Shown in pieces: positions 737-42,499 of a stretch of DNA of 42,499 nt. Position 1 is the stretch's first letter. Each line of letters opens with the position of its first letter. The notes under the pieces are model-generated. The model worked only from the letters and a program-made list of their open reading frames with translations, had not been told where the DNA came from and ran no database searches. Made by a program: the position numbers and the translations under genes. The DNA lies in the sequence record OZ418230.1. The stretch is one strand, 5' to 3'. This stretch comes from a phage.

Positions 737-4417
<3,681 letters not shown>

Positions 4418-4437
<20 letters not shown>

Positions 4438-5749
4438 TCTCCCGCATATTGCCAGCATGGCCTTTAATGAGCCGCTGATGCTTGAACCCGCCTATGCGCG
4501 GGTTTTCTTTTGTGCGCTTGCAGGCCAGCTTGGGATCAGCCGCCTGACGGATGCAGTATCCGGCGACAGCCTGACTGCCGGAGAGGCACCCGCGGCGCTG
4601 GCGTTATCCGGTGATGATGACGGACCACGACAGGCCCGCAGTTATCAGGTCATGAACGGCATCGCCGTGCTGCCGGTGTCCGGTACGCTGGTCAGCCGGA
4701 CGCGGGCGCTGCAGCCGTATTCGGGAATGACCGGTTACAATGGCATTATCGCCCGTCTGCAACAGGCTGCCAGCGATCCGATGGTGGACGGCATTCTGCT
4801 CGATATGGACACACCGGGCGGGATGGTGGCGGGAGCATTTGACTGTGCTGACATCATCGCCCGTGTGCGAGACATAAAACCGGTATGGGCGCTGGCCAAC
4901 GACATGAACTGCAGTGCAGGTCAGCTGCTTGCCAGCGCCGCCTCCCGGCGTCTGGTCACGCAGACTGCCCGGACAGGCTCCATCGGCGTCATGATGGCTC
5001 ACAGTAATTACGGTGCTGCCCTGGAGAAACAGGGCGTGGAAATCACGCTGATTTACAGCGGCAGCCATAAGGTGGATGGCAATCCCTACAGCCATCTTCC
5101 GGATGACGTCCGGGAGACACTGCAGTCCCGGATGGACGCAACCCGCCAGATGTTTGCGCAGAAGGTGTCGGCATATACCGGCCTGTCTGTGCAGGCTGTG
5201 CTGGATACCGAGGCTGCAGTGTACAGCGGTCAGGAGGCCATTGATGCCGGACTGGCTGATGAACTTGTTAACAGCACCGATGCGATCACCGTCATGCGTG
5301 ATGCACTGGATGCACGTAAATCCCGTCTCTCAGGAGGGCGAATGACCAAAGAGACTCAATCAACAACTGTTTCAGCCACTGCTTCGCAGGCTGACATCAC
5401 CACCGTGGAGCCTGCGAAGGAGGGCGAAAACGCCAGCGCGGCGCAGCCGGATGTGAACGCACAGATCACCGCAGCGGTTGCGGCAGAAAACAGCCGCATT
5501 ATGGGGATCCTCAACTGTGAGGAGGCTCACGGACGCGAAGAACAGGCGCGCGTTCTGGCAGAAACCCCCGGAATGACCGTGGAAACGGCCCGCCGCATTC
5601 TGGCCGCAGCACCACAGAGTGCACAGGCGCGCAGTGACACTGCGCTGGATCGTCTGATGCAGGGTGCACCGGCACCGCTGGCTGCAGGTAACCTGGCATC
5701 TGATACCAATAAAGAATTACTTAATACACCTGAAGCTTTACCGGTATAA
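4418..5749 (+). CDS. C: head maturation protease / scaffold fusion (gpC)
   Basis: Lambda C begins VTAELRNLPHIASMAF... with GTG at 4418, in frame with the track ORF 4304..5749; upstream extension not used. Confidence 0.88.
5132..5749 (+). CDS. nu3: scaffolding protein Nu3 (nested in-frame in C)
   Basis: Internal in-frame ATG (MDATRQMF...) at the position corresponding to lambda Nu3 start. Confidence 0.7.
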   Translation: MDATRQMFAQKVSAYTGLSVQAVLDTEAAVYSGQEAIDAGLADELVNSTDAITVMRDALDARKSRLSGGRMTKETQSTTVSATASQADITTVEPAKEGENASAAQPDVNAQITAAVAAENSRIMGILNCEEAHGREEQARVLAETPGMTVETARRILAAAPQSAQARSDTALDRLMQGAPAPLAAGNLASDTNKELLNTPEALPV

Positions 5750-5758
5750 GAGGCAGTT

Positions 5759-6091
5759 ATGGCGACAAAAGAAGAGTTTAACCATTACCAGCCGCTGGGT
5801 AACAGTGATCCGGCTCATACAGCAATTGCGCCTGGCGGATTGAGTGCGAAAACGCCTGCAATGACCCCACTGATGCTGGATGGCACTACCCGTAAGCTGG
5901 TTGTGTGGGATGGCACCACCGACGGTGCAGCCGTTGGCATTCTGGCGGTTGCTGCTGACCAGACCAGCACCACACTGACGTTCTACAAGTCCGGCTCGTT
6001 CCGTTATGAGGATGTGCTCTGGCCGGAGGCTGCCAGCGACGAGACGAAAAAACGGACCGCGTTTGCCGGAACGGCAATCAGCATCGTTTAA
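5759..6091 (+). CDS. D: head decoration protein D
   Basis: 110 aa, matches lambda gpD. Confidence 0.95.
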
Positions 6092-21382: not shown

Positions 21383-21610
21383 ATGGATATAAGCCCCTTA
21401 CTTCATGCACTTTGTGCTGTGGCTGCGCAGATACTGGTTGGTCTTTTTACCGGAAACTGGGCTTACGGAGCGATAGCCGGTTGTACGTTCTTCATTGCGC
21501 GTGAACATACCCAGGCAGAATATCGCTGGATTGAAATGTTCGGGCATGGCAAGCGAATGAATATGCCGTGGTGGGGCGGTTTTGATGTTACGCCATATGG
21601 GCTGGACTGA
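21383..21610 (+). CDS. hypothetical small hydrophobic protein
   Basis: 75-aa ORF with hydrophobic N-terminus; its last codons run into the icd-homologous segment in a different frame, so could be fortuitous. Confidence 0.3.
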
Positions 21611-21749
21611 AGCCGCAGACCTGATTGTTAAAGGTATGGAAGGCGCAATCAACGCCAAGACTGTAACCTATGACTTCGAACGTCTGATGGAAGGCGCTAA
21701 ATTGCTGAAATGTAGCGAGTTTGGCGACGCGATCATCAAGAACATGTAA
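21585..21749 (+). other. attP-associated substitute 3' end of host icd (isocitrate dehydrogenase)
   Basis: Open frame translating [54 protein letters not shown], near-identical to the E. coli Icd C-terminus; phages 21 and e14 integrate in icd. Confidence 0.8.
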
Positions 21750-21772
21750 TCACTACATGTGTTAAATATTTA

Positions 21773-21800
21773 AACGGGCGTGTTATACGCCCGTTGTTTT
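21773..21800 (+). terminator. rho-independent terminator following the icd 3' segment
   Basis: Stem aacgggcg/cgcccgtt with 7-nt loop followed by gtttt. Confidence 0.65.
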
Positions 21801-21815
21801 ATGATGATGTAAAAT

Positions 21816-21852
21816 CTTCCCCAAAACTTTCCCCAAAACCCTTCCCCAAAAC
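21816..21852. repeat. three tandem 12-13 bp direct repeats (c/t)ttccccaaaac; candidate integrase arm-type sites
   Basis: cttccccaaaac / tttccccaaaac / ccttccccaaaac in direct succession between the icd segment and the int 3' end. Confidence 0.6.
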
Positions 21853-21862
21853 TGGCTATTTT

Positions 21863-23005
21863 CTATGCTGTTTTGATATCTACGATAACCCAGTCTTTAC
21901 CACGATCATCATTGTATCGGTCGGTCATTTTTCTGGATTTATGGCCTAACAACTTTTGCGTATCCAGACCCTGTTCCCGATATAACCGTTCTGACAGAGA
22001 TCGCTGCTCATGAAATGTGGGCGCAGTTCCTTGCTCCCATTTTATGCCACATTTTTCCCTGGCCTTTTTAAAAGCCGTTGTCAGAGTATTTGCAGAAACC
22101 TGGTCTCCTCTGTTTGCTTGAGAGGTAGTGTGACGGTAATGGACCAGATATTTACTAACAACAGCATCCCTGCACTGAGATATAACTTCACGAAGGGTAA
22201 TATTCAGAGCATCGCATTTCAGGTTAAGCGGAATAGCAAGTTTTGAACCGGTTTTTTCCTGAGTAATGTGCAACATGTCGTCCCAGATATCAGAGAATTT
22301 CAAATTGCAGATATCACCTAAACGTTGTCCAGTAACAAGAGCAAGTAGCATGCCGCATTTTAAATAGGGCTGCCGTCTGCTTACGCTTTCAAATATTGCC
22401 TGCCATTCGGGCAGTGACAATCTTTGGCGGTTTACTCGATTTCGCGGTTGTTTTGTTGCCTGCGCTGGGTTAAATCCTGGCGGAACATGTCCTGCGTGTT
22501 GTGCTTCTTTGAAGACGTCGATCAACACCATTCTCACGACTTGCGCCATCCTGTTATGACCTTCAGCCTTTACAGCATCAATTATTTCGGCAATATCAAG
22601 TGCGGTAATATCCTTGAGGTGTTGCATTCCACAATGCTCACGGAAAAGACGAATGGGTTTGCCTTTTTGCCGATAGGAGTTGGGTCTTAGTTCATTATGT
22701 TGCAGCCTGTCCTCCTGGATAGAAATATATTTATCAAGCCATTCTGTCACCGTAATTTCTGAGCGCCTGCCTTTCATTCTTTCCAGACGCTCATTGACGC
22801 TTAATATTTGTCGGGTACGTTGTTCAGCAATAATGGTATTTGCTTCAGTAGCAACTTGTTTTGCTTCATTCTCATCAGTTCCTAAGCTATGAAAACGACC
22901 GGATAGTGGATGTTTGTATTGCCAATATACCTTTCCGGTTCGCTTATCTAATTTGCAATATAAATTGGGTATAGAGATTTTGTGAGATCGGGGTCTAGCA
23001 GCCAT
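21863..23005 (-). CDS. int: tyrosine integrase, phage 21/e14 (icd-targeting) type
   Basis: 380 aa with tyrosine-recombinase C-terminal region (…HEQRSLSERLYREQGLDTQKLLGHKS…); resembles e14 IntE from memory; adjacent to attP. Confidence 0.9.
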   Translation of the reverse strand: MAARPRSHKISIPNLYCKLDKRTGKVYWQYKHPLSGRFHSLGTDENEAKQVATEANTIIAEQRTRQILSVNERLERMKGRRSEITVTEWLDKYISIQEDRLQHNELRPNSYRQKGKPIRLFREHCGMQHLKDITALDIAEIIDAVKAEGHNRMAQVVRMVLIDVFKEAQHAGHVPPGFNPAQATKQPRNRVNRQRLSLPEWQAIFESVSRRQPYLKCGMLLALVTGQRLGDICNLKFSDIWDDMLHITQEKTGSKLAIPLNLKCDALNITLREVISQCRDAVVSKYLVHYRHTTSQANRGDQVSANTLTTAFKKAREKCGIKWEQGTAPTFHEQRSLSERLYREQGLDTQKLLGHKSRKMTDRYNDDRGKDWVIVDIKTA

Positions 23006-23231
23006 CAGCGATTATCCGTTGGAGTTTTGGGTTTGCGTTTATTGGGAGTTGCGGTTCTGCAAGCGTTCCTACAAAACGGGAATTTCGGTCAATCATCCAG
23101 TAGCGACCAACTTTTATAGCGGGTGGGGCCATCATTTTCCCTTGCGCGTATTTTTTCAGAACTCGCTCACTTGGTGCTAAGTCCCCAAATTCTTCTTTAG
23201 CCCAGTCCTGTAAAGTGATTAGTCGAGACAT
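22995..23231 (-). CDS. xis: excisionase
   Basis: 78-aa ORF overlapping int start by 11 bp, position typical of xis. Confidence 0.75.
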   Translation of the reverse strand: MSRLITLQDWAKEEFGDLAPSERVLKKYAQGKMMAPPAIKVGRYWMIDRNSRFVGTLAEPQLPINANPKLQRIIADGC

Positions 23232-23370
23232 TTGTCCTCCTCTTAGCTGCTGAGGGAGTTTGTGACCGATATATCTGACATGATATTAAGCTCATGGCAG
23301 GTACATCTCTTGACTGGTCATAGAGATAAATTTAATGCTGAGAAATGCAGTATTGAATTTATCAATTTTT

Positions 23371-23610
23371 CTATTTCCTGCGTATGGCACGTAACTTCTT
23401 AATGTGTTCTGCCGTTTCGATCTCTTCTGCTATCCGATCTGCATCAGCTTTATTCACAGGTTCAAAGTCATGATTAAAGCGGAACATGCTGGCGATACAT
23501 GTTCTGCCTTTTCGGATGTAGTGAACTTTGTTGTAGGTAGAACGCAGGATTTTGCAGGGAGTGCCGTGGTGGTCGACGTACCAGGTGTTAGGAAAAATGA
23601 TTCTGAGCAT
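23371..23610 (-). CDS. hypothetical protein
   Basis: 79-aa ORF in the distal pL operon; no family recognised. Confidence 0.4.
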   Translation of the reverse strand: MLRIIFPNTWYVDHHGTPCKILRSTYNKVHYIRKGRTCIASMFRFNHDFEPVNKADADRIAEEIETAEHIKKLRAIRRK

Positions 23611-23657
23611 TTTTACACCTCAGTTGGACGATGTTGAAATTTGCTGCTTTGAGGCCA

Positions 23658-23876
23658 TCACAATCCCCATTGTTTGTTCTTAAGTTCGATCTCCTCCTGG
23701 CAACTTGCACAAGTCCGACAACCCTGAACGACCAGGCGTCTTCGCTCATCTATCGGATCGCCACACTCACAACAATGAGTGGCAGATACAGTCTGGTAGT
23801 TCAGACGACGCATTTTTATTGCTGTATTGCGCTGTAATTCTTCGATTTCTGATGCTGAATCAATGATGTCTGCCAT
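23658..23876 (-). CDS. TraR/DksA-family C4 zinc-finger protein
   Basis: 72 aa with CxxC…CxxC (CCECGDPIDERRRLVVQGCRTCASCQ) typical of the TraR/DksA zinc ribbon. Confidence 0.6.
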   Translation of the reverse strand: MADIIDSASEIEELQRNTAIKMRRLNYQTVSATHCCECGDPIDERRRLVVQGCRTCASCQEEIELKNKQWGL

Positions 23877-23974
23877 CTTCCATTAATCCCTGAATTGTTG
23901 GTTAATACGCTTGAGGGTGAATGCGAATAATAAAAAAGGAGCCTGTAGCTCCCTGATGATTTTGCTTTTCATGT

Positions 23975-24274
23975 TCATCGCTCCTTAAAGACGCCGTTTA
24001 ACATGCCGATCGCCAGGCTTAAATGAGTCGGTGTGAATCCCATCAGCGTTACCGTTTCGCGGTGCTTCTTCAGTACGCTACGGCAAATGTCATCGACGTT
24101 TTTATCCGGAAACTGCTGTCTGGCTTTTTTGATTTCAGAGTTAGCTTGACGGGCAATGCTGCGAAGGGCGTTTTTCTGCTGAGGTGTCACTGAACAAGCC
24201 CCATGCCGGAAAGCATAAGCACACAGAATATGAAGCCCGCCGCCAGAAAAATGCATTCTGTTGTTGTCATGCAA
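23975..24274 (-). CDS. hypothetical protein
   Basis: 99-aa ORF, start uncertain (internal Met possible). Confidence 0.45.
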   Translation of the reverse strand: MHDNNRMHFSGGGLHILCAYAFRHGACSVTPQQKNALRSIARQANSEIKKARQQFPDKNVDDICRSVLKKHRETVTLMGFTPTHLSLAIGMLNGVFKER

Positions 24275-24458
24275 GCTCTCTCTCGTTTGCCTCTGCTTTC
24301 GCCGCCATCATTTCCAGCTTTTGTGAAAGGGATGCGGCTAACGTATGAAATTCTTCGTCTGTTTCTGCTGGTATTGGCACAAACCTGACTCCAATTTGAG
24401 CAAGGCTATGTGCCATCTCAATGCTCGTTCTTAACTCAACAGGAGATGCTTTGTGCAT
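24267..24458 (-). CDS. lambda Orf63-like small protein
   Basis: 63 aa ([23 protein letters not shown]…), matches my recollection of lambda orf63 and its position upstream of orf60a/exo. Confidence 0.6.
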   Translation of the reverse strand: MHKASPVELRTSIEMAHSLAQIGVRFVPIPAETDEEFHTLAASLSQKLEMMAAKAEANERELA

Positions 24459-24619
24459 ACAGCCCCTCGTTTATTATTTATCTCCTCAGCCAGCCGCTGG
24501 GCTTTCAGTGGATTTTGGATAACAGAAAGGCCGGGAAATACCCAGCCTCGCTTTGTAACGGAGTAGACGAAAGTGATCGCGCCTACCCGGATATTATCGT
24601 GAGGATGCGTCATCGCCAT
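24431..24619 (-). CDS. lambda Orf60a-like small protein
   Basis: 62-aa ORF overlapping the 3' end of exo as lambda orf60a does. Confidence 0.55.
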
Positions 24620-25290
24620 TGCTCCCCAAATACAAAACCAATTTCAGCCAGTGCCTCGTCCATTTTTTCGATGAACTCCGGCACCATCTCGTCAAAACTC
24701 GCCATGTACTTTTCATCCCGCTCAACCACGACATAATGCAGTCCTTCACGCTTCATACGCGGGTCATAGTTGGCAAAGTACCAGGCATCTTTTCGTGTCA
24801 CCCACATGCTGTACTGCACCTGGGCCATGTAAGCCGACTTTATGGCCTCGAAACCACCGAGCCGGAACTTCATGAAATCCCGGGAGGTAAACGGGCATTT
24901 CAGCTCAAGGCCATTGCCGTCACTGCATAAACCATCGGGAGAGCAGGCGGTGCGCATACTTTCGTCGCGATAGATGATCGGGGATTCAGTAACATTCACG
25001 CCGGAAGTGAATTCAAACAGAGTTCTGGCGTCGTTCTCGTACTGTTTTCCCCAGGCCAGCGCCTTAGCATTAACTTCCGGAGCCACACCGGTGCAAACCT
25101 CAGCCAGCAGGGTGTGGAAGTAGGACATTTTCATGTCAGGCCACTTCTTTCCTGAGCGGGGCTTTGCTATCACGTTGTGAACTTGTGAAGCGGTGATGAC
25201 GCCGAGCCGTAATTTGTGCCACGCATCATCTCCCTGCTCGATAGCTCTCACGTCGATCCCGGTACGCTGCAGGATAATGTCCGGTGTCAT
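24610..25290 (-). CDS. exo: lambda exonuclease (Red-alpha)
   Basis: 226 aa, near-identical to lambda Exo. Confidence 0.95.
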
Positions 25291-26072
25291 GCTGCCACCT
25301 TCTGTTCAGTGGCTTTTTGTTTCAGGAATCCAAGAGCTTTCACTGCTTCGTCCTGTGTCAGTTCTGACGATGCACGAATGTCGCGGCGAAATATCTGGGA
25401 ACAGAGCGGCAATAAGTCGTCATCCCATGTTTTATCCAGGGCGATCAGCAGAGTGTTAATCTCCTGCATGGTTTCATCGTTAACCGGAGTGATGTCGCGT
25501 TCCGGCTGACGTTCTGCAGTGTATGCGGTATTTTCGACAATGCGCTCGGCTTCATCCTTGTCATAGATACCAGCAAATCCGAAGGCGAGACGGGCACACT
25601 GAATCATGGCTTTATGCCGTAACATCCGTTTGGGATGCGACTGCCACGGCCCCGTGATTTCTCTGCCTTCGCGAGTTTTGAATGGTTCGCGGCGGCATTC
25701 ATCCATCCATTCGGTAACGCAGATCGGATGATTACGGTCCTTGCGGTAAATCCGGCATGTACAGGATTCATTGTCCTGCTCAAAGTCCATGCCATCAAAC
25801 TGCTGGTTTTCATTGATGATGCGGGACCAGCCATCAACGCCCACCACCGGAACGATGCCGTTCTGCTTATCAGGGAAGGCGTAAATTTCTTTCGTCCACG
25901 GATTAAGGCCGTACTGGTTGGCGACGATCAACAATGCGATGAACTGCGCATCGCTGGCATCACCTTTAAATGCCGTCTGGCGAAGAGTGGTGATCAGTTC
26001 CTGTGGGTCGACAGAATCCATGCCGACACGTTCAGCCAGCTTCCCTGCCAGCGTTGCGAGTGCTGTACTCAT
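25287..26072 (-). CDS. bet: Red-beta single-strand annealing protein
   Basis: 261 aa, lambda Bet. Confidence 0.95.
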
Positions 26073-26077
26073 CCGTT

Positions 26078-26494
26078 TTATACCTCTGAATCAATATCAA
26101 CCTGGTGGTGAGCAATGGTTTCAACCATGTACCGGATGTGTTCTGCCATGCGCTCCTGAAACTCAACATCGTCATCAAACGCACGGGTAATGGCTTTTTT
26201 GCTGGCCCCGTGGCGTTGCAAATGATCGATGCATAGCGATTCAAACAGGTGCTGGGGCAGGCCTTTTTCCATGTCGTCTGCCAGTTCTGCCTCTTTCTCT
26301 TCACGGGCGATCTGCTGGTAGTGACGCGCCCAGCTCTGAGCCTCAAGACGATCCTGAATGTAATAAGCGTTCATGGCTGAACTCCTGAAATAGCTGTGAA
26401 AATATCGCCCGCGAAATGCCGGGCTGATTAGGAAAACAGGAAAGGGGGTTAGTGAATGCTTTTGCTTGATCTCAGTTTCAGTATTAATATCCAT
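26078..26494 (-). CDS. gam: Gam, RecBCD inhibitor
   Basis: 138 aa, lambda Gam (long form). Confidence 0.95.
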
Positions 26495-26592
26495 TTTTTA
26501 TAAGCGTCGACGGCCTCACGAAACATCTTTTCATCGCCAATAAAAGTGGCGATAGTGAATTTAGTCTGGATAGCCATAAGTGTTTGATCCAT
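26449..26592 (-). CDS. kil: Kil (host cell-division inhibitor)
   Basis: 47-aa product [47 protein letters not shown] as lambda Kil; the track ORF 26449..26718 is an upstream extension. Confidence 0.8.
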
Positions 26593-26725
26593 TTTTTGGG
26601 ACTCCTGGCTGATTAAGTATGTCGATAAGGCGTTTCCATCCGTCACGTAATTTACGGGTGATTCGTTCAAGTAAAGATTCGGAAGGGCAGCCAGCAACAG
26701 GCCACCCTGCAATGGCATATTGCAT
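26561..26725 (-). CDS. cIII: CIII (FtsH inhibitor stabilising CII)
   Basis: Manual translation gives the 54-aa [54 protein letters not shown], lambda CIII; below the track length cutoff. Confidence 0.8.
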   Translation of the reverse strand: MQYAIAGWPVAGCPSESLLERITRKLRDGWKRLIDILNQPGVPKNGSNTYGYPD

Positions 26726-26797
26726 GGTGTGCTCCTTATTTATACATAACGAAAAACGCCTCGAGTGAAGCGTTATTGGTATGCGGTAACGCCGCGC

Positions 26798-27166
26798 TCA
26801 GGCGGCTTTGATAGTCATATCATCTGAATCAAATATTCCTGATGTATCGATATCGGTAATTCTTATTCCTTCGCTACCATCCATTGGAGGCCATCCTTCC
26901 TGACCATTTCCATCATTCCAGTCGAACTCACACACAACACCATATGCATTTAAGTCGCTTGAAATTGCTATAAGCAGAGCATGTTGCGCCAGCATGATTA
27001 ATACAGCATTTAATACAGAGCCGTGTTTATTGAGTCGGTATTCAGAGTCTGACCAGAAATTATTAATCTGGTGAAGTTTTTCCTCTGTCATTACGTCATG
27101 GTCGATTTCAATTTCTATTGATGCTTTCCAGTCGTAATCAATGATGTATTTTTTGATGTTTGACAT
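26798..27166 (-). CDS. ea10: Ea10 protein
   Basis: 122 aa matching lambda Ea10. Confidence 0.9.
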   Translation of the reverse strand: MSNIKKYIIDYDWKASIEIEIDHDVMTEEKLHQINNFWSDSEYRLNKHGSVLNAVLIMLAQHALLIAISSDLNAYGVVCEFDWNDGNGQEGWPPMDGSEGIRITDIDTSGIFDSDDMTIKAA

Positions 27167-34352: not shown

Positions 34353-34696
34353 CAATGGATTATTCACAGTTAAGTGATTTTGAAATTAACAGAATGGTAG
34401 GAGACATAATTTTTAAAGGCCTTTGGGCAAGTAAACCGGAAACATCAGGGAATAACACCAACAAATGGTATTACGGAAATGCTGATACAACTTTTGAGCC
34501 ATTAAATCATTTGCCTGACTACTGCAATGATCCGAGCGCTTCATGGCCGATTATTGAGAAATACAGGATTTCTATCTTAGACCAGTTAACTGAATGGTGT
34601 GTGGATGCAAAAGGCGTAAGCCCAATATTTGATACCAGACCTCTCCGCGCCGCCATTATTGTCTTTCTCCTGATGCAGGAGGCCAATAATGCTTAG
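34349..34696 (+). CDS. hypothetical nin-region protein
   Basis: 115 aa from MTMDYSQ…; ATGA overlap with ninE; no confident family. Confidence 0.5.
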
Positions 34697-34883
34697 CCCA
34701 TCTCAATCCCTTCAATACCTGAAAGGAAGCATAGAGCGGGCTTCAATGTGCACAGAGTGGATTCTATCTAGGTTTAGCGCATACAGAAGATTGCCGGTAA
34801 AGGGCATGCCAAGCAAGTCGATGCTGCATATGCAAAAGAATGCGCGCGGGAAGGTATGGCGAGAACGCAGGTTATCTGGCTGA
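34689..34883 (+). pseudogene. ninF-like 5' fragment fused to unrelated sequence (chimeric ORF)
   Basis: First ~18 codons ([18 protein letters not shown]) match lambda NinF; downstream the product diverges and the NinF CxxC…CxxC cysteines are missing. Confidence 0.5.
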
Positions 34884-34906
34884 AAGAGGGGGTAATTAAG
34901 GCGTGA
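34778..34906 (+). pseudogene. 3' remnant of a ybcO-like (DUF1364) gene, no start codon
   Basis: Alternative frame reads …[31 protein letters not shown], matching the C-terminus of DLP12 YbcO from memory; bounded upstream by TAG stops; its stop overlaps the rusA GTG. Confidence 0.5.
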
Positions 34907-35265
34907 ATACTTACCACATCACACTACCCTGGCCTCCGAGCAATAATCGCTATTATCGCCATAATCGCGGGCGCACGCACGTCAGCGCAGAGGGGCAGGC
35001 ATACCGCGATAACGTCGCCCGAATCATTAAAAACGCAATGCTGGATATCGGCCTGGCGATGCCTGTGAAAATCCGCATTGAGTGCCACATGCCGGATCGC
35101 CGTCGCCGTGACCTGGATAATCTGCAAAAAGCCGCTTTTGACGCACTCACCAAAGCAGGTTTCTGGCTGGATGATGCTCAGGTCGTTGATTACCGCGTTG
35201 TGAAGATGCCTGTTACCAAAGGTGGGAGGCTGGAATTGACCATCACCGAAATGGGGAATGAATGA
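34903..35265 (+). CDS. rusA: RusA Holliday-junction resolvase
   Basis: 120 aa, GTG start, near-identical to DLP12 RusA (…[34 protein letters not shown]…). Confidence 0.9.
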
Positions 35266-35402
35266 TGTTTGAGTTTTATATGGCAGAACGTCTTCGCCAC
35301 CGCTGGGTGCGTCTGCGCTTATATCGTTTCCCCGGTTCTGTTTTGACCGATTACCGAATACTGAAGAATTACGCCAAAACACTGACAGGAGCAGGAGTAT
35401 GA
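35262..35402 (+). CDS. ylcG: YlcG small protein
   Basis: Manual translation gives 46-aa [46 protein letters not shown], as DLP12 YlcG; overlaps rusA stop. Confidence 0.7.
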
Positions 35403-35487
35403 AGTCAGAGATAACAATCAACTAATACTGTTTTGCTGATTTTTGCTTGTAATTGGCGTTCTGGTCTGATTTTTGTGGAGTAAGTTG

Positions 35488-35865
35488 ATGCGTGATATTC
35501 AGATGGTTCTTGAGCGTTGGGGAGCGTGGGCGGCTAATAATCATGAAGATGTGACCTGGTCGTCCATTGCCGCCGGTTTTAAGGGATTAATTCCTTCAAA
35601 AGTAAAATCTCGCCCGCAATGTTGTGACGATGACGCGATGATCATTTGCGGGTGCATGGCCCGTCTGAAAAATAACAACAGCGATTTGCATGATTTGTTA
35701 GTGGACTATTATGTCGGCGGCATGACTTTTATGGCGCTTGCGCGTAAGCATGGTAGATCTGATTGTTGGATTGGCAGGATGCTCCAAAAAGCTGAGGGCG
35801 TAGTGGAGGGCATGCTGATGGTGTTGGATCTCAGATTGGAGATGGATGCTGATTGTTTGAGATAA
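35488..35865 (+). CDS. Q: late-gene antiterminator Q (phage 82 / DLP12 QuuD type)
   Basis: [34 protein letters not shown]… resembles QuuD; start at 35488 preferred over track start 35473. Confidence 0.85.
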
Positions 35866-35894
35866 TTAAAGGAAAAGTTGCTGTCTGGTTATCA

Positions 35895-35921
35895 TTAGAC
35901 TAATGTTTCAAATGTTAGAAT
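35895..35921 (+). promoter_or_regulatory. candidate late promoter pR' (-35 ttagac, -10 tagaat)
   Basis: Sigma70-like hexamers downstream of Q and upstream of a terminator; spacing roughly 15 bp, so tentative. Confidence 0.35.
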
Positions 35922-35963
35922 CGCAACGTAGTTATGATCATATAACAGCTTGTTCCCTGATTT

Positions 35964-35993
35964 AGCCAGCCTCCCCAAAGGCTGGTTTTTTTT
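35964..35993 (+). terminator. tR'-like rho-independent terminator downstream of Q
   Basis: Stem ccagcc/ggctgg with 8-nt loop followed by TTTTTTTT. Confidence 0.7.
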
Positions 35994-36021
35994 CTAATAA
36001 GTATCAATCCGGTTAGGTATT

Positions 36022-36546
36022 TTATTGTTTGACCCATAATAGTTCATTGACATTGAATCCCAATTTTTGAGCAGTACGCACATAGTCTGCTTTTACATTA
36101 TCTGGAATAGTTGGAGTCCGTGCCAGAATCCATAGGTATTCTCTGTTCGGACCACTGACAAGAGCATACTTATACTCATCATCCAGTTTGATTACATTAT
36201 AGCCACCATAGAAGGGGCCAAAAAACGAAACCTTCAACGCTGCAGTTGTATTATCTCCTGTAAAGTATGCTTTACCTTCGCTCTCGCTCCATTTGTTTTT
36301 CGTTGGGTCATATCCACGATTAAGTACACTAATCCCTCCGTCGTTCCGTTTCCCATAAGTGGCGCTGACCTGTTCCAGACCACGTTCAAATCGGTTCTCA
36401 AGCCGAGCTATTTCATACCATTTTCCGAGGTAGCGGTTGGTGTCAAAATTTGTAATCGGCTGCACACCTTTAGGTGGTGTCGGGGCCTTACATGCTATCA
36501 GAGTGAAAGAGAGTGCAATGCCAGTCAACACAGGCCATAACTTCAT
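36022..36546 (-). CDS. Blc-like outer-membrane lipocalin lipoprotein
   Basis: 174 aa with lipobox (LIAC) and strong similarity to E. coli Blc (…YLGKWYEIARLENRFERGLE…KVSFFGPFYGGYNVI…). Confidence 0.8.
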   Translation of the reverse strand: MKLWPVLTGIALSFTLIACKAPTPPKGVQPITNFDTNRYLGKWYEIARLENRFERGLEQVSATYGKRNDGGISVLNRGYDPTKNKWSESEGKAYFTGDNTTAALKVSFFGPFYGGYNVIKLDDEYKYALVSGPNREYLWILARTPTIPDNVKADYVRTAQKLGFNVNELLWVKQ

Positions 36547-36895
36547 AATATATCCTGTACTTTTGATAGTTGAGAGTAAGTATTAAAGATAGATGATTAC
36601 TACCGATCACCTAAAGAACTTTCCTACTATATTAGGAATAGTCCATAACAAAAAAATTGTCAGTGATGACGGCAGAAAGGCAGTTTAGGTCGTGTACTAC
36701 ACTGTTAACCTGTTAATGAATTAGTCAAGGGGTAGGCAATGATAAAAAAACCTGTCGTTGGGATCAGTGGTTGTTTGGCCGGTTCTTCTGTCCGTTTTGA
36801 TGGTGGTCACAAAAGAGCTAGCTTTTTAATGGACAAATTACTGGAATGGGTAACATTCAAACCAGTATGTCCGGAAATGGCTATAGGGCTTCCAG

Positions 36896-36900
36896 TTCCG
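36896..36900. repeat. IS2 target-site duplication, left copy (ttccg)
   Basis: Identical 5-mer directly flanks both IS2 ends. Confidence 0.85.
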
Positions 36901-36911
36901 TGGATTTGCCC

Positions 36912-37817
36912 CTATATTTCCAGACACCTGTTATCACTTAACCCATCACTGGCCCACTGCCGCAGATATTCCCGTGGCGAGCGATAACCCAGCGCACTAT
37001 GCGGATGCCATTCGTTATAATGCTCGAACGCCTCTGCAAGGTTCTTTGCTGCCGTTAACCCGTCTGGTTTGGGCATGATACTGATGTAGTCACGCTTTAT
37101 CGTTTTCACGAAGCTCTCTGCTATTCCGTTACTCTCCGGACTCCGCACTGCCGTGTTCTTCGGTTCAAGTCCCAACATCCTGGCGAACTGACGTGTTTCA
37201 TTCGCCCGGTAGCATGAACCATTATCCGTCAGCCACTCCACTGGAGACGCCGGAAGCTCGCTGCCAAAGCGGCGTTCCACTGCTCCCAGCATGACGTCCT
37301 GTACTGTTTCACTGTCGAAGCCACCCGTTGTGACCGCCCAGTGCAGTGCCTCACGGTCACAGCAGTCCAGCGCGAACGTGACCCGCAGTTTTTCTCCGTT
37401 ATCACAGCGGAACTCAAACCCGTCAGAGCACCATCGCTGATTACTTTCTTTCACAGCCACTCTGCCGGTATGTGCCCGTTTCGATGGCGGTACAGCGGGT
37501 TTTCGCTCAAGCAACAGCGCATTCTGGCGCATGATCCGGTAAACACGTTTGGCATTGATCGCAGGCATACCATCAAGTTCTGTTTGTCTGCGAAGCAGCG
37601 CCCATACCCGACGATAACCATATGTGGGTAGCTCTCCGATAACATGGTGTATACGGCGAAGCACATCCGTATCATCCGTGTGACGGCTGCGGCGGCCGTC
37701 CTTCCAGTCATCGGCTCGTCTGAGAATGACGTGCAACTGCGCACGCGACACCCGGAGACAACGGCTGACGAAGCTTACTCCCCATCCCCGGGCAATAAGG
37801 GCGCGTGCGCTATCCAC
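36912..37817 (-). CDS. insD: IS2 transposase OrfB (InsD)
   Basis: 301 aa, matches IS2 InsD. Confidence 0.9.
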
Positions 37818-38140
37818 TTTTTTGCTCGCCCATATTCAACGGCTTCTTTAAGGAGTTCATTTTCCATCGTTTTTTTGCCGAGCAGACGCTGGAGTTCTTT
37901 AATCTGCTTCATGGCGGCAGCAAGTTCAGAGGCAGGAACGACCTGTTCTCCGGCAGCCACAGCAGTAAGACTTCCCTCCTGGTATTGCTTACGCCAGAGA
38001 AATAGCTGGCTGGCTGCCACACCATGTTGCCGGGCAACAAGGGAGACCGTCATTCCCGGTTCAAAGCTCTGCTGAACGATAGCGATCTTTTCCTGTGTAG
38101 TACGCCGTCTGCGTTTCTCCGGCCCTAAGACATCAATCAT
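37775..38140 (-). CDS. insC: IS2 OrfA (InsC)
   Basis: 121 aa from [40 protein letters not shown]…; overlaps insD (frameshift window). Confidence 0.9.
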
Positions 38141-38231
38141 CTGTTCTCCAATGACTAGTCTAAAAACTAGTATTAAGACTATCACTTAAATAAGTGATAT
38201 TGGTTGTCTGGAGATTCAGGGGGCCAGTCTA

Positions 38232-38236
38232 TTCCG
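38232..38236. repeat. IS2 target-site duplication, right copy (ttccg)
   Basis: Identical to 36896..36900. Confidence 0.85.
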
Positions 38237-39343
38237 CGTCCTGCTCTACGTCTTGTTCGCTCGGCGCAAGGAAATATACGGATGTGTTTCAGCCACGACC
38301 AGAATGAGGATGTTACAGAGAAAATGACAGAGTTTAGTCGTTCTTATCTTGACAAATTAAAGGATGTATCGGGATTTGTGGTTTGTGCAAAATCTCCTAG
38401 CTGTGGTATGGAACGCGTGCGTGTATATGATGAAAATGGTAATCGTGGTCGTAAAGATGGAGTGGGACTATTTACGAGCACGTTGATGGAAAGGTTTTCC
38501 TGGCTACCGGTTGAAGAGGATGGGCGACTACATGATCCAGTGCTTCGTGAAAACTTTGTTGAAAGAGTATTTGCTTTACATGAGCTCAATCATCTTTATA
38601 AAGCGAAATTATCAAGAAGGGAATTATTAGCTTTTCATAGCCGTTATAAGCTTCAGTTGTTGGCGCATAGCCAGGCCGGTTATAAAGAGATGGGGCCATT
38701 TGTGGCTGCAATACATGAGTGGGCAGACCTTGAATCATACTTTGAGGTGTATCGTGAGAAGCTGATGGCGATTCTCAGAAAACCTGCATCACGTAAAAAT
38801 CACACGAATGTGCTGATGCATATACAGGGATATTTTAGTAACTGCTTAAATACACGTCAGCGTAAAGAGTTGAGCGATGTTATACTTAACTATCGAGCTG
38901 GCACGCTACCTCTTCTTGCGCCATTAACTTTGCTGAAGCATTACTTGGCAGAGTATCCTGATGATTATTTGCTTATACAGAATTACTTCCACCCCTATCC
39001 TGATGAACTGGCTCTAAGACTCTTGGTGAACTAGGCGTTTGGAATGCACCAACAAGATGATTTTCTCCTTAGAGAATGTTTACAATCGTAAAAACTTCAC
39101 TATGATATCTATAGTTGTACAGTTTGTAAAAAAATTCGGTTCATGCTTAAGGTAATGTTAATATGTTAATTAATGATTAATAATCAAGCAAGCCAAAAAT
39201 AGTTCTGTTTAATCTAGTATTACATAAATATTTTAAAGAAAATATCAAAGTTCATGATGATATAATGAGATTTTTCTCATTGAAAATATGGCAATTTTAA
39301 TATTTCCACCTATACTTACTTAACTCAAATCTAATTATGTCAG

Positions 39344-40084
39344 GTGGATGGTATGCCATGCATATGTTCTATCATTTTAGTTTTGAACTCGTTTGATATC
39401 CGGCTTGGTAAAGAAAAAATCTCTCTAAAAAAAGGAAGTGTTGTTGCTATAGAATACAATTTAAAAGTTTTCTTTTCTTCAAATAAAGATAATATAATGA
39501 TCGTGGATATTGAAGAGAAAACAGTTAATGACTTCTTTAAAAACAATACACTCTCACCTTTTTCTGTAAGAAGATTTTATTCAGCATACTTGATAGTAAA
39601 CTGTACAGACTATTCATTGTTAAAGAACTTGATAGGTTGCTTGAATTGTGATGGTGAAACTACGGCTGTAGTTAAAAATTCAATATTATTTGCATGTCTT
39701 GCTATTTTATCCTCGGAAAAAATGTTTCAGAGTTTTTTGTTTGGGTGTCTTAATAGTTTAGGAAGCAAAGTTAAGGCTATTATTCACTCGGACATATCTG
39801 CAGCATGGAGACTTTGTGATATTTCTTCAAGACTATGTCTGAGTGAAAGTTTGTTAAAAAGAAAACTAAAACACGAAGGCTTATCATTTAGCAAATTAAT
39901 TCTTGAAGAACGAATGGTGATGGCTGAAAGGTTATTAAGCTACAATTTCTATCCTGTTGGGAAAGTTGCTAAAATATGTGGTTATGAAAGCGCGTCATAT
40001 TTTATAAGTGTTTTCAGAAGATATTTTGGTGTTCCCCCCCATGAATATTCATCAAGATTTTTTTTAGAAAAAGGCAAGATGTAA
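39344..40084 (+). CDS. AraC/XylS-family transcriptional regulator (low GC)
   Basis: C-terminal double-HTH signature (…GYESASYFISVFRRYFGVPPHEYSS…) resembling GadX/Rns-type regulators; gene and upstream region markedly AT-rich. Confidence 0.8.
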   Translation: MDGMPCICSIILVLNSFDIRLGKEKISLKKGSVVAIEYNLKVFFSSNKDNIMIVDIEEKTVNDFFKNNTLSPFSVRRFYSAYLIVNCTDYSLLKNLIGCLNCDGETTAVVKNSILFACLAILSSEKMFQSFLFGCLNSLGSKVKAIIHSDISAAWRLCDISSRLCLSESLLKRKLKHEGLSFSKLILEERMVMAERLLSYNFYPVGKVAKICGYESASYFISVFRRYFGVPPHEYSSRFFLEKGKM

Positions 40085-40251
40085 CGTGATGCGTTTTGAT
40101 GATTTTGTAATTTTCATATTTGATGATTATATGATGCTTTCAGCTACGCCAGAATAATCGCTGGCGTTTTTCTTTTCTAATGTAACTTCTGTATCTTTCC
40201 CTCTTTCATTCCAAACCGTGTACACCATCCGTTATTCGCGGAGGTGAGGCT

Positions 40252-40467
40252 ATGAAATCCATGGACAAGTTAACAACGGGCATTGCCTACGGCACCTCTG
40301 CAGGCAGTGCTGGCTACTGGTTTTTACAGTGGCTTGATCAGGTCAGTCCGTCACAGTGGGCGGCGATTGGAGTGCTTGGAAGCCTTGTGTTGGGTTTTCT
40401 CACTTATCTGACAAACCTTTATTTCAAGATTAAAGAAGATAAGCGTAAGGCTGCGAGAGGTGAATAA
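40252..40467 (+). CDS. S: pinholin (phage 21 S21 type), dual-start motif
   Basis: 71 aa [31 protein letters not shown]… as S21/EssD; Met1 and Met4 give the dual start. Confidence 0.85.
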
Positions 40468-40964
40468 TGTCGCCATCATTACGCAAGGCTGTAGCAGCTG
40501 CTATTGGTGGTGGGGCTGTTGCCATAGCGTCTGTGCTCATCACTGGTCCGAGTGGTGACGATGGTCTGGAAGGTGTCAGCTACATACCATATAAAGATAT
40601 TGTTGGTGTATGGACTGTATGTCACGGGCATACAGGAAAAGACATCATGCTCGGTAAAACGTATACCAAAGCAGAATGCAAAGCACTCTTGAATAAAGAC
40701 CTTGCCACTGTCGCCAGACAAATTAACCCGTACATCAAAGTCGATATACCGGAAACAACGCGCGGCGCTCTTTACTCATTCGTTTACAACGTGGGTGCTG
40801 GCAATTTCAGAACATCGACGCTTCTTCGCAAAATAAACCAGGGCGATATCAAAGGCGCATGTGATCAGTTACGTCGCTGGACATATGCTGGCGGTAAGCA
40901 ATGGAAAGGTCTCATGACTCGTCGTGAGATTGAGCGTGAAATCTGTTTGTGGGGTCAGCAATGA
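40467..40964 (+). CDS. R: SAR endolysin (phage 21 R21 / RrrD type lysozyme)
   Basis: 165 aa with N-terminal signal-anchor-release segment ([20 protein letters not shown]) and lysozyme domain. Confidence 0.9.
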
Positions 40965-41422
40965 ACAGAGTAACCGCGATTATCTCCGCTCTGGTTATCT
41001 GCATCATCGTCTGCCTGTCATGGGCTGTTAATCATTACCGTGATAACGCCATTACCTACAAAGCCCAGCGCGACAAAAATGCCAGAGAACTGAAGCTGGC
41101 GAACGCGGCAATTACTGACATGCAGATGCGTCAGCGTGATGTTGCTGCGCTCGATGCAAAATACACGAAGGAGTTAGCTGATGCGAAAGCTGAAAATGAT
41201 GCTCTGCGTGATGATGTTGCCGCTGGTCGTCGTCGGTTGCACATCAAAGCAGTCTGTCAGTCAGTGCGTGAAGCCACCACCGCCTCCGGCGTGGATAATG
41301 CAGCCTCCCCCCGACTGGCAGACACCGCTGAACGGGATTATTTCACCCTCAGAGAGAGGCTGATCACGATGCAAAAACAACTGGAAGGAACCCAGAAGTA
41401 TATTAATGAGCAGTGCAGATAG
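40961..41422 (+). CDS. Rz: i-spanin Rz
   Basis: Lambda Rz from the Met at 40961 ([30 protein letters not shown]…), ATGA overlap with R. Confidence 0.88.
41181..41363 (+). CDS. Rz1: o-spanin Rz1 (embedded in Rz, +1 frame)
   Basis: 60-aa lipoprotein [59 protein letters not shown], as lambda Rz1. Confidence 0.88.
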
Positions 41423-41453
41423 AGCTGCCCATATCGATGGGCAACTCATGCAA

Positions 41454-41747
41454 TTATTGTGAGCAATAGACACGCGCTTCCAGCGGAGTATAAATGCCTA
41501 AAGTAATAAAACCGAGCAATCCATTTACGAATGTTTGCTGGGTTTCTGTTTTAACAACATTTTCTGCGCCGCCACAAATTTTGGCTGCATCAACAGTTTT
41601 CTCCTGTCCAATTCCCGAAACGAAGAAGTGATGGGTGATGGTTTCCTTTGGTGTTACTGCTGTCGGTTTGTTTCCAACAGTAAACGTCTGTTGAGCACAT
41701 CCTGTAATAAGCATTGCCAGAGCGGCAGAAAACAACATTTTTTTCAT
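41454..41747 (-). CDS. bor: Bor serum-resistance lipoprotein
   Basis: 97 aa from MKKMLFSAALAMLITGCAQQTFTV…, lambda Bor; the track start 41795 is an upstream extension. Confidence 0.88.
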   Translation of the reverse strand: MKKMLFSAALAMLITGCAQQTFTVGNKPTAVTPKETITHHFFVSGIGQEKTVDAAKICGGAENVVKTETQQTFVNGLLGFITLGIYTPLEARVYCSQ

Positions 41748-42106
41748 CTTATTATCCTGCATTGTTAAAAACGGCAGAATCCTATGTGACAACAATTAAA
41801 CGATAGTTAAATGGATTGATGAAAATTAAAACTATATAGGTGGATGCTCAGCCTATTGGAGGAGGGGGGCACTCAGAATCCTGTGGAATGAAATAAACCG
41901 CTCTTTCTGTCCATTACCCTTTTAGCTGCGCTGTATCGTCGCCGTATTCCCGCATTAACCATGACCGTAGCCCGACGGGGAATTCCTTCTGCGTGAGTGT
42001 GCGGGAATAATCAAAAACGATGCACACCGGGTTTTACTGTGCTGACAGACGCAGGGTTACCCTCATAGTCGCTTTTCCGGTGCGATGGTGGAAGAAACCG
42101 GGATGT

Positions 42107-42301
42107 TTATTCATCATCACTTTGGATTGATGTACATGCTCTCTTTTCTGACGTTAGTCTCCGACGGCAGGCTTCAATGACCCAGGCTGAGAAATTCCCA
42201 GACCCTTTTTGCTCAAGAGCGATGTTAATTTGTTCAATCATTTGGTTAGGAAAGCGGATGTTGCGGGTTGTTGTTCTGCGGGTTCTGTTCTTAGTTGACA
42301 T
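42107..42301 (-). CDS. small ribbon-helix-helix (Arc/CopG-like) protein
   Basis: 64 aa; …NIRFPNQMIEQINIALEQKGSGNFSAWVIEACRRRL… resembles an RHH fold; same position as the unnamed lambda right-end ORF. Confidence 0.5.
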   Translation of the reverse strand: MSTKNRTRRTTTRNIRFPNQMIEQINIALEQKGSGNFSAWVIEACRRRLTSEKRACTSIQSDDE

Positions 42302-42399
42302 GAGGTTGCCCCGTATTCAGTGTCGCTGATTTGTATTGTCTGAAGTTGTTTTTACGTTAAGTTGATGCAGATCAATTAATACGATACCTGCGTCATAAT

Positions 42400-42499
42400 T
42401 GATTATTTGACGTGGTTTGATGGCGTAGATGCACGTTGTGACATGTAGATGATAATTATTATCATTTTGTGGGTCCTTTCCGGCGATCCGACAGGTTAC
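42400..42499. other. cos: right genome end leading into cos
   Basis: Terminal …gggtcctttccggcgatccgacaggttac matches the remembered lambda right end that precedes the cohesive terminus. Confidence 0.75.

Follow-up and report, generated by a model that had tools for sequence, protein, structure and literature searches.

The phage DNA of sequence record OZ418230.1 (42,499 nucleotides, hereafter the window) carries three cargo genes between the late antiterminator gene Q and the lysis genes: a lipocalin gene (blc) that runs against the late operon, a rudS gene split by an insertion sequence (IS) of the IS2 type, and a gene for an AraC/XylS-family regulator. Homology to the prophage DLP12 of Escherichia coli K-12 stops at 35847 and restarts at 40241, hence 35848-40240 can be regarded as an exchangeable slot. 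In DLP12 the same interval is filled by an IS5-disrupted nmpC. A first-pass annotation, made from the letters of the DNA only, had described a cargo island between Q and the lysis genes at 35866-40251, in almost exact agreement with these borders. The base composition of the slot is atypical (37% guanine plus cytosine, GC, versus 51.5% in the phage backbone, where the minimum over 732-bp windows is 39.2%). The regulator gene (31.1% GC, GC3 25.8%) and the 318-bp spacer upstream of it (26.7% GC) represent the most AT-rich DNA of the window, which matches the AT-rich leader of approximately 300 bp at 39035..39343 that had been reported before. With a probability of roughly 0.75, we regard the interval as a standard accessory (moron) cassette of 1H12-like/DLP12-like lambdoid coliphages.

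The three cargo genes

The lipocalin gene (36022..36546, minus strand) is antisense to the late operon and encodes a Blc-like outer-membrane lipoprotein of 174 amino acids, which corresponds to gp65 'Lipocalin Blc' of Escherichia phage 1H12 (NC_049947, Jouyvirus jv1H12), a cultured phage from the infant gut. The product matches Pfam Lipocalin_2 (E=2e-43), scores above the cutoff of the NCBIfam Blc subfamily model (315.5 bits, cutoff 267) and finds the Blc structures 3mbt/1qwd in the PDB with E values of about 1e-69. Its N-terminus, MKLWPVLTGIALSFTLIAC|KAP, shows the lipobox L-I-A-C ending at Cys19, with Lys and no Asp at position +2; the lipobox and sorting call was read directly from the sequence, with no predictor. 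These data confirm the lipocalin lipoprotein that the first-pass annotation had proposed on the opposite strand. Compared to the chromosomal Blc of K-12 (b4149), to which it is 60% identical, the phage protein has the same Lipocalin_2 fold, lipobox and length. In contrast, its gene is phage-borne with an unrelated upstream region, and it is a paralogue that has diverged from the host gene, not a copy of it. The regions upstream of the chromosomal and the phage blc could not be aligned and show no similarity, therefore no promoter can be transferred from the chromosomal gene. Among the morons of lambda-type phages, blc is listed as a frequent one, present in >50% of the infant-gut lambda isolates (Mathieu et al. 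2020, PMC6969025).

The middle gene is found in two pieces. Its 5' fragment (36739..36900, plus strand) comprises codons 1-54 with Cys12 and Cys44 and belongs to Pfam 2-thiour_desulf (DUF523), and its 3' fragment (38237..39034, plus strand) comprises codons 55-319, i.e. the remaining part of the TudS domain (2-thiour_desulf), which includes Cys110, followed by DUF1722 (E=1e-40). They are separated by an IS2-type element of the IS3 family on the minus strand (36901..38231, 1331 bp), which is recognised by its ends, its length and a 5-bp target duplication, TTCCG, at 36896-36900 and 38232-38236. The ends of the element are IS2-like (TGGATTTGCCCC... and ...GGGGGCCAGTCTA) with imperfect terminal inverted repeats. 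The orfA and orfB genes are apparently intact, their minus-strand open reading frames (ORFs) carry the Pfam domains HTH_Tnp_1 and rve, and RefSeq annotates an IS3 family transposase with programmed frameshift and no pseudogene flag. Identity to IS2 copies elsewhere is approximately 95% (about 93-97% for most of those in phages and E. coli genomes); the element is a diverged IS2 isoform and not canonical IS2.

When the IS and one copy of the duplication are excised in silico, a 960-nucleotide ORF is restored that is identical at 960/960 positions to 1H12 gp66, the gene of RudS_vir, and contains the RudS hallmarks, namely the fusion of TudS (DUF523) with DUF1722 and the cysteines 12, 44 and 110. 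Judged by this identity, the middle gene is the published RudS_vir, which differs only by being uninterrupted, and is predicted to be dead in the present genome. The earlier reading of an IS2-disrupted DUF523/DUF1722 gene was thus right with regard to the insertion and both domains, but the gene does not code for a protein of unknown type. RudS proteins are TudS-DUF1722 fusions that strip 4-thiouridine (s4U) from tRNA with a [4Fe-4S] cluster that is bound through three cysteines (Jamontas et al. 2024, PMC11417400). All tested variants, RudS_vir included, lowered the s4U content of tRNA when expressed in E. coli, RudS_KT shortened the growth delay caused by ultraviolet A (UVA) light, and RudS_vir was the least active of the variants (PMC11417400). 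In the same paper, E. coli is said to lack TudS/RudS homologues, which holds for K-12 (PMC11417400). Because the insertion after codon 54 leaves Cys12 and Cys44 on one piece and Cys110 and DUF1722 on the other, RudS is predicted to be inactive here. In the identical locus of E. coli 118UI both rudS pieces are marked as pseudogenes by RefSeq.

The exact IS2 junction was found in only 4 of the 5426 complete E. coli genomes that formed our survey set. The insertion is recent and lineage-specific. An ancient insertion or an insertion hotspot was considered and rejected, since the junction is limited to these 4 genomes and the IS2 and IS1 copies of other strains sit at different positions of the island. 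For example, E. coli isolate 68 (locus extract L011, 2787-4015) has an IS2 in the spacer between blc and rudS and an intact rudS, and in further strains IS1 is found in or near blc, so that the island has repeatedly been struck by insertion sequences at differing sites. If particles were the source of the sequenced DNA, phage production can go together with an IS2 in the late operon.

The third gene (39353..40084, plus strand, 31% GC) encodes a 243-amino-acid regulator of the AraC/XylS family that resembles PatE, Psr, AppY and YdeO; it is identical with 1H12 gp67, annotated as 'hypothetical protein', and matches phrog_1450 over its full length. The family and the AT-richness had been recognised in the first pass, which placed the gene at 39344..40084. 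The ATG at 39353 is the likelier start than the GTG at 39344, since it is preceded by the Shine-Dalgarno sequence AGGTGGA and is also used in the RefSeq and 1H12 annotations. Two helix-turn-helix (HTH) models of Pfam match above their cutoffs, HTH_18 (E=3e-15) at residues 161-237 and HTH_AraC (E=2e-12) at residues 204-235, both counted from GTG 39344, i.e. minus 3 for the ATG start. Among the NCBIfam models YdeO fits best, with a full-length alignment that scores 112.7 bits versus a cutoff of 348, and GadX reaches 98.7 versus 500. Hence, the protein is a relative and not an orthologue of YdeO or GadX, because these scores are far under the equivalog cutoffs. By sequence, GadX, CsvR, Rns and ToxT are closest.

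An AlphaFold model of the regulator, built from 13 homologues, has a mean predicted local distance difference test (pLDDT) value of 77. The modelled DNA-binding domain consists of seven helices (residues 136-225 in ATG numbering, pLDDT 84-95) that form a double HTH, and it superimposes on the GadX domain with an rmsd of 1.1 A and template modelling (TM) scores of 0.89-0.91 at 42% identity. The N-terminal domain is modelled as beta-rich, with pLDDT values around 80 for residues 1-60 and <60 for residues 61-120. Searches with the full-length model by Foldseek returned Rns, CsvR and ToxT as well, but with a TM score of just 0.44. The two-domain fold resembles those of Rns, CsvR and ToxT; compared to the GadX/YdeO/Rns/ToxT subgroup, the N-terminal domain of the present protein is shorter. 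Both Pfam and the model therefore display the double HTH whose absence would have spoken against an AraC-type regulator, and the initial guess of a GadX/Rns-like protein that could rewire acid resistance agrees with its closest relatives in sequence and fold.

Regulators of a similar kind, i.e. prophage-borne, AT-rich and approximately 240-250 amino acids long, are PatE (Z0321) of CP-933H/O island (OI)-8, PsrA and PsrB of OI-50 and OI-57, and AppY. The only AraC-family gene of CP-933H (OI-8) in strain EDL933, presumed to be PatE/Z0321, codes for a protein that is 53% identical to the present regulator over 235 amino acids, with 72% identity in the DNA-binding domain and 38% in the N-terminal domain. 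A 237-amino-acid regulator of OI-57, the probable PsrB, is 40% identical, and DLP12 AppY 30%, in each case with homology along the full length. Phage phiSTEC1575-Stx2k has a homologue upstream of the Shiga toxin gene stx2 that is 92% identical to the OI-57 protein and 40% to the present one. This homologue and the probable PsrB occupy the slot used here, too, namely the interval from Q to the lysis genes. In the OI-57 prophage (EDL933, CP008957; locus extract L014, 35274-35987) the probable PsrB gene has a DUF1133 Q-like gene on one side and tRNA-Ile/Arg with the lysis genes on the other. The search for PsrA (Z1789) by tblastn in EDL933 CP008957 1,625,001-1,700,000, which covers OI-50, returned no AraC-like sequence, and PsrA was dropped from the comparison. 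The present regulator differs from PatE, Psr and AppY in its genomic neighbours, and its carriers are commensal or uropathogenic strains rather than enterohaemorrhagic E. coli (EHEC). According to reviews and the AppY study, gadE, hdeA and the AR2 pathway of acid resistance are switched on by PatE, PsrB and AppY (PMC10877973, PMC10057817), and PatE and the Psr proteins repress type III secretion of the enterocyte effacement locus (LEE) (PMC10877973, PMC8565820, PMC10057817). Literature searches by protein accession returned nothing on the present regulator, and nothing relevant was found on DLP12 together with the lipocalin.

Carriers, conservation and neighbourhood of the cassette

In phage 1H12 the genes gp64-gp68 follow in the same order as in the window: Q, antisense blc, rudS, the AraC-like gene and the holin gene. 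Without the IS2, the window and 1H12 are 99.9% identical over 8.1 kb, and on the whole-genome level the structural genes are 98.4% and the remainder 99.95-99.97% identical. Both have the same cos ends. They differ in that 1H12 is free of IS2 with an intact rudS, whereas rudS of the window contains the insertion, and in an additional b-region of approximately 5.5 kb in 1H12 (1H12 21576-27124) with sitABCD and four small ORFs, which is absent from the window. The corresponding gap in the window lies near 21586, in the stretch that separates the tail-fibre genes from int (21863-23005); sitABCD is a manganese/iron transporter moron. The more distant phage IdasGreatGrand displays the same order, with Q, antisense blc, an intact 319-amino-acid DUF523-DUF1722 gene, the AraC-like gene and the holin gene.

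Among the surveyed genomes, blc was detected in 1139, prophage-borne rudS in 1081 and the regulator gene in approximately 1030 (at least 80% identity). Hence, the cassette is carried by about 20% of the complete E. coli genomes. The 1H12-type allele (at least 99%) accounts for 108-110 genomes, depending on the query. Many copies are found in DLP12-like cryptic prophages at the position of nmpC, and intact copies also occur in plaque-forming phages. When the two allele lineages are compared, blc, rudS and the regulator gene show ratios of nonsynonymous to synonymous substitution rates (dN/dS) of 0.07, 0.10 and 0.24-0.26, respectively, next to yardsticks of approximately 0.1 for Q and 0.03-0.08 for lysozyme. 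On these ratios all three cassette genes are under purifying selection. The three proteins have full-length matches to PHROG phage families, the function of which is not annotated and none of which has a virion or lysis role. No anti-phage defence model of PADLOC was matched by any of the three proteins.

The window opens with a cos end of the lambda type (GGGGCGGCGACCT...), stops one base before the end of the 1H12 record and has its genes in virion order (terminase, tail, int, cI, Q, lysis). Therefore, it is a complete 42,499-bp lambdoid phage genome and no slice of a chromosome. Its Q-to-S region has a 100% identical counterpart in a prophage of E. coli 118UI and in three further human isolates. 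On the left side of the slot, Q (35488..35865, plus strand) encodes a late antiterminator of the QuuD/P21 (DLP12) type of 125 amino acids (Pfam Phage_antitermQ, E=2.5e-51) that is remotely similar to the Q21 structures 6p18/6jnx (E=2e-8). Nucleotide identity to the quuD region of K-12 is 93.7% up to 35847, and RefSeq names the gene product of the identical 118UI locus 'antiterminator Q family protein'. On the right side, DLP12 essD homology restarts at 40241, just before the gene of an S21-type class II holin (40252..40467, plus strand; Pfam Phage_holin_2_1, E=3e-35), which is the first lysis gene and is followed by lysozyme, Rz/Rz1 and a Bor/Iss lipoprotein gene. The latter, a Bor-type gene downstream of Rz (41454-41747, minus strand), is annotated as 'increased serum survival lipoprotein Iss' in 118UI; it is another moron beside the lysis cassette. 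In 118UI, a second IS3-family element splits rusA, which is intact in the window (34903-35265), and the DUF1364 family gene upstream of the split rusA is annotated as a partial pseudogene (118UI locus 4105-5866 versus window 34689-35265). The window is therefore distinct from the copy in 118UI, despite the identical Q-to-S region. Unlike Stx and O157 phages, the window contains no tRNA genes, and an Rfam scan of 35300-42499 with E<=1 gave one sub-threshold match, on a terminator hairpin.

Transcription signals in the slot

In known Q cassettes, the Q gene is followed by the promoter PR', a sigma-dependent pause element, a terminator and the late genes (bioRxiv 10.1101/651190; PMC6606751). By analogy with this layout, 35866..35963 (plus strand) is presumed to contain the late promoter (pR') and the Q-loading region. 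It includes TGnTAGAAT, an AATGTT(N3)AATGTT direct repeat and a -10-like TATGAT. At 35902-35925 the direct repeat abuts an extended -10-like sequence, TGTTAGAAT, an arrangement that resembles the direct repeat for Q binding of phage 21 between -35 and -10. The TGAGCA repeat of phage 21 itself was absent when the DNA downstream of Q was searched for Q-binding elements. Approximately 100 nucleotides after the Q stop codon, an intrinsic terminator similar to tR' is found (35964..35995, plus strand; 9-bp stem and U8 tail). The hairpin has a folding energy of -14.2 kcal/mol (z=-3.5, 0/200 shuffles as stable) and is conserved in IdasGreatGrand. This terminator should serve the late operon and not blc, because the hairpin on the minus strand is without a U-tract. 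Since rudS and the regulator gene lie downstream of it, the sense-strand cargo is likely to be part of the Q-dependent late unit, like stx. No terminator after the rudS stop codon and no convincing promoter before rudS were found.

Two promoter candidates precede the regulator gene. The distal one (39079..39106, plus strand) is sigma-70-like, TTTACA-16-TATGAT, with a match of 10/12 to the consensus, and is embedded in a block of 32 nucleotides in which all but one spacer base are invariant across alleles that have diverged by approximately 13%, with indels elsewhere in the spacer. The proximal one (39288..39319, plus strand), about 35 nucleotides upstream of the ATG, has a sigma-S-type extended -10, CTATACTTAC, at 39310-39319. 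The sequence TTTCCACCTATACTTAC is kept in three of four sequences compared, the exception, CCTACACTTAC, being Ecol_517, where the AraC gene is frameshifted. In this DLP12-like cryptic prophage (locus extract L010, 6096-6826), the frameshifted regulator gene thus occurs together with a change of CTATACTTAC to CTACACTTAC. Between the regulator gene and the holin gene, a second intrinsic terminator (40146..40177, plus strand) consists of a 7-bp GC-rich stem and UUUUUCUUUU; it has a folding energy of -11.3 kcal/mol (z=-3.1, 0/200 shuffles as stable) and is also conserved in IdasGreatGrand. As read from these signals, the regulator gene has the anatomy of a moron, i.e. conserved promoter-like sites and its own terminator. 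The divergent intergenic region between blc and rudS (36547..36738, 34.9% GC) shows weak matches to promoter consensus sequences, among them a candidate sigma-S-like -10, (A/C)ATACTTAC, approximately 35 nucleotides upstream of the blc ATG.

Role of the cassette and alternative explanations

The features that favour a moron cassette are the atypical composition (37% versus 51.5% GC) and a slot that is interchangeable with nmpC or stx. DLP12 with nmpC and Stx phages with stx use the same position, downstream of Q/tR' and upstream of the holin gene, and in K-12 the DLP12 cargo has likewise been hit by an IS element. The present slot differs from these cases by other genes, one of them antisense and one with its own terminator. 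In the lysogen, blc and the regulator gene would be transcribed from their own promoters; for blc we infer an expression that does not depend on Q. The AT-rich DNA would probably be silenced by H-NS, and control of the regulator by RpoS appears probable. The regulator itself would most likely activate acid-fitness genes of the host (gadE, hdeA) in analogy to PatE, PsrB and AppY. Upon induction, Q-modified RNA polymerase is expected to read through tR', to cross the antisense blc, rudS, IS2 and the regulator gene with its terminator, and finally to reach S-R-Rz, so that the sense-strand cargo would be expressed late as well, as stx is. The first-pass annotation had assumed horizontally acquired genes of lysogenic conversion. 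Their nature as accessory cargo is supported by the GC content, the replacement of nmpC, the listing of blc as a moron, the matches of all three proteins to phage families and the purifying selection, but the sense-strand genes would not be purely lysogenic, because they should also belong to the Q-dependent late transcript.

Several observations weigh against this explanation or parts of it. The candidates for pR' and the Q-binding site are poorly, in part only, conserved in the 87%-identical allele and in DLP12. A convincing sigma-70 promoter for blc was sought in its upstream region and not found. The H-NS nucleation motif TCGATAAATT, searched with up to two mismatches, is not enriched (32 found versus 37 expected) and has no match in the AT-rich spacer. 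Of the H-NS binding that the first-pass annotation had proposed to look for in the leader, the extreme AT content stands and the motif does not, which leaves AT content as the argument. The names 'PatE' and 'PsrB' were assigned to the compared proteins via island position and not via accession number. Moreover, the regulator scores far below the YdeO and GadX cutoffs and in the N-terminal domain it shares no more than 38% identity with the PatE-like protein, hence its signal and possibly its targets could differ from those of PatE. Finally, the cargo is dispensable, since rudS is inactivated here and at least one strain has only a pseudogene of the regulator.

The sense-strand cargo could instead act chiefly as an auxiliary of the lytic cycle, with rudS and possibly the regulator gene expressed mainly from the late transcript that Q antiterminates; RudS would then erase the photosensitive s4U after UV-type induction and thereby sustain translation for the production of virions. 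This is suggested by the co-orientation of rudS and the regulator gene with the late operon downstream of the tR'-like terminator, as known from stx, by the missing terminator after and convincing promoter before rudS, and by the shorter UVA-induced growth delay upon RudS overexpression (PMC11417400). However, the conserved promoter-like blocks and the separate terminator give the regulator gene a moron anatomy, blc is antisense to the late transcript, and RudS_vir was the weakest of the variants tested (PMC11417400). Furthermore, the cassette is kept under purifying selection in cryptic DLP12-like prophages without complete sets of virion genes, two of which, Ecol_517 and isolate 68, are shown here. 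We consider a mainly lytic role possible, though clearly not the probable one. It is also conceivable that the AraC-like protein acts locally, on the cassette or on genes of the phage (such as the divergent blc/rudS promoters or the timing of lysis), and does not rewire the host. Many AraC-family proteins control neighbouring genes, the three cassette genes are almost always co-inherited, fatty acids are ligands of Rns and ToxT, the nearest structural relatives of the N-terminal domain, and Blc itself binds lipids. Nevertheless, such a local function is unlikely given that those relatives that have been characterised (PatE, PsrB and AppY) target acid-fitness genes of the host, that the DNA-binding domain is 72% identical to that of the PatE-like protein, and that the cassette showed no repeated motif resembling an operator.

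The broken rudS, the IS2 and IS1 copies elsewhere in the island of other strains, the frameshifted regulator gene of Ecol_517 and the IS5-disrupted nmpC in the same slot of K-12 might also point to a decaying, selectively neutral hitch-hiker in a recombination-prone slot. We regard this as very improbable, because dN/dS values of 0.07-0.26 over approximately 5-13% nucleotide divergence are near those of Q and lysozyme, plaque-forming phages as well as about one fifth of the complete E. coli genomes carry intact copies, and the present IS2 junction occurs in just 4 genomes. Each of these three explanations fits some of the data, and none of them is better supported than the accessory cassette. 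A bolder and rather speculative extension, to which we give little credence, is a co-selected stress module, in which the regulator would sense fatty acids or envelope lipids via its Rns/ToxT-like N-terminal domain and couple acid and envelope responses to Blc, and in which late expression of rudS would link UV-type induction to the erasure of s4U. If this were true, a single phage cassette would account for part of the acid, envelope and UVA physiology of one fifth of the E. coli strains.

Taking the Q-S interval as an accessory cassette, two of its three genes are already in the literature from a phage with the same sequence, the third adds a member to a class that has been studied in depth, and both the slot and the traffic of IS elements through it are classical. 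For the annotation of such genomes this means that the pseudogene labelled 'DUF523/DUF1722' or 'YbgA family' becomes an IS2-disrupted rudS, and the 'hypothetical' or 'helix-turn-helix' protein a PatE-like AraC/XylS regulator. Since rudS is present in approximately 20% of the complete E. coli genomes, tRNA s4U and the responses to UVA may vary between strains with their prophage content. Furthermore, regulators of the PatE/Psr type extend beyond EHEC, as a close relative is carried by a very common lambdoid phage of commensal and uropathogenic strains. A phage this common makes it easy to ask whether the acid-fitness island is under phage-borne control in E. coli generally.

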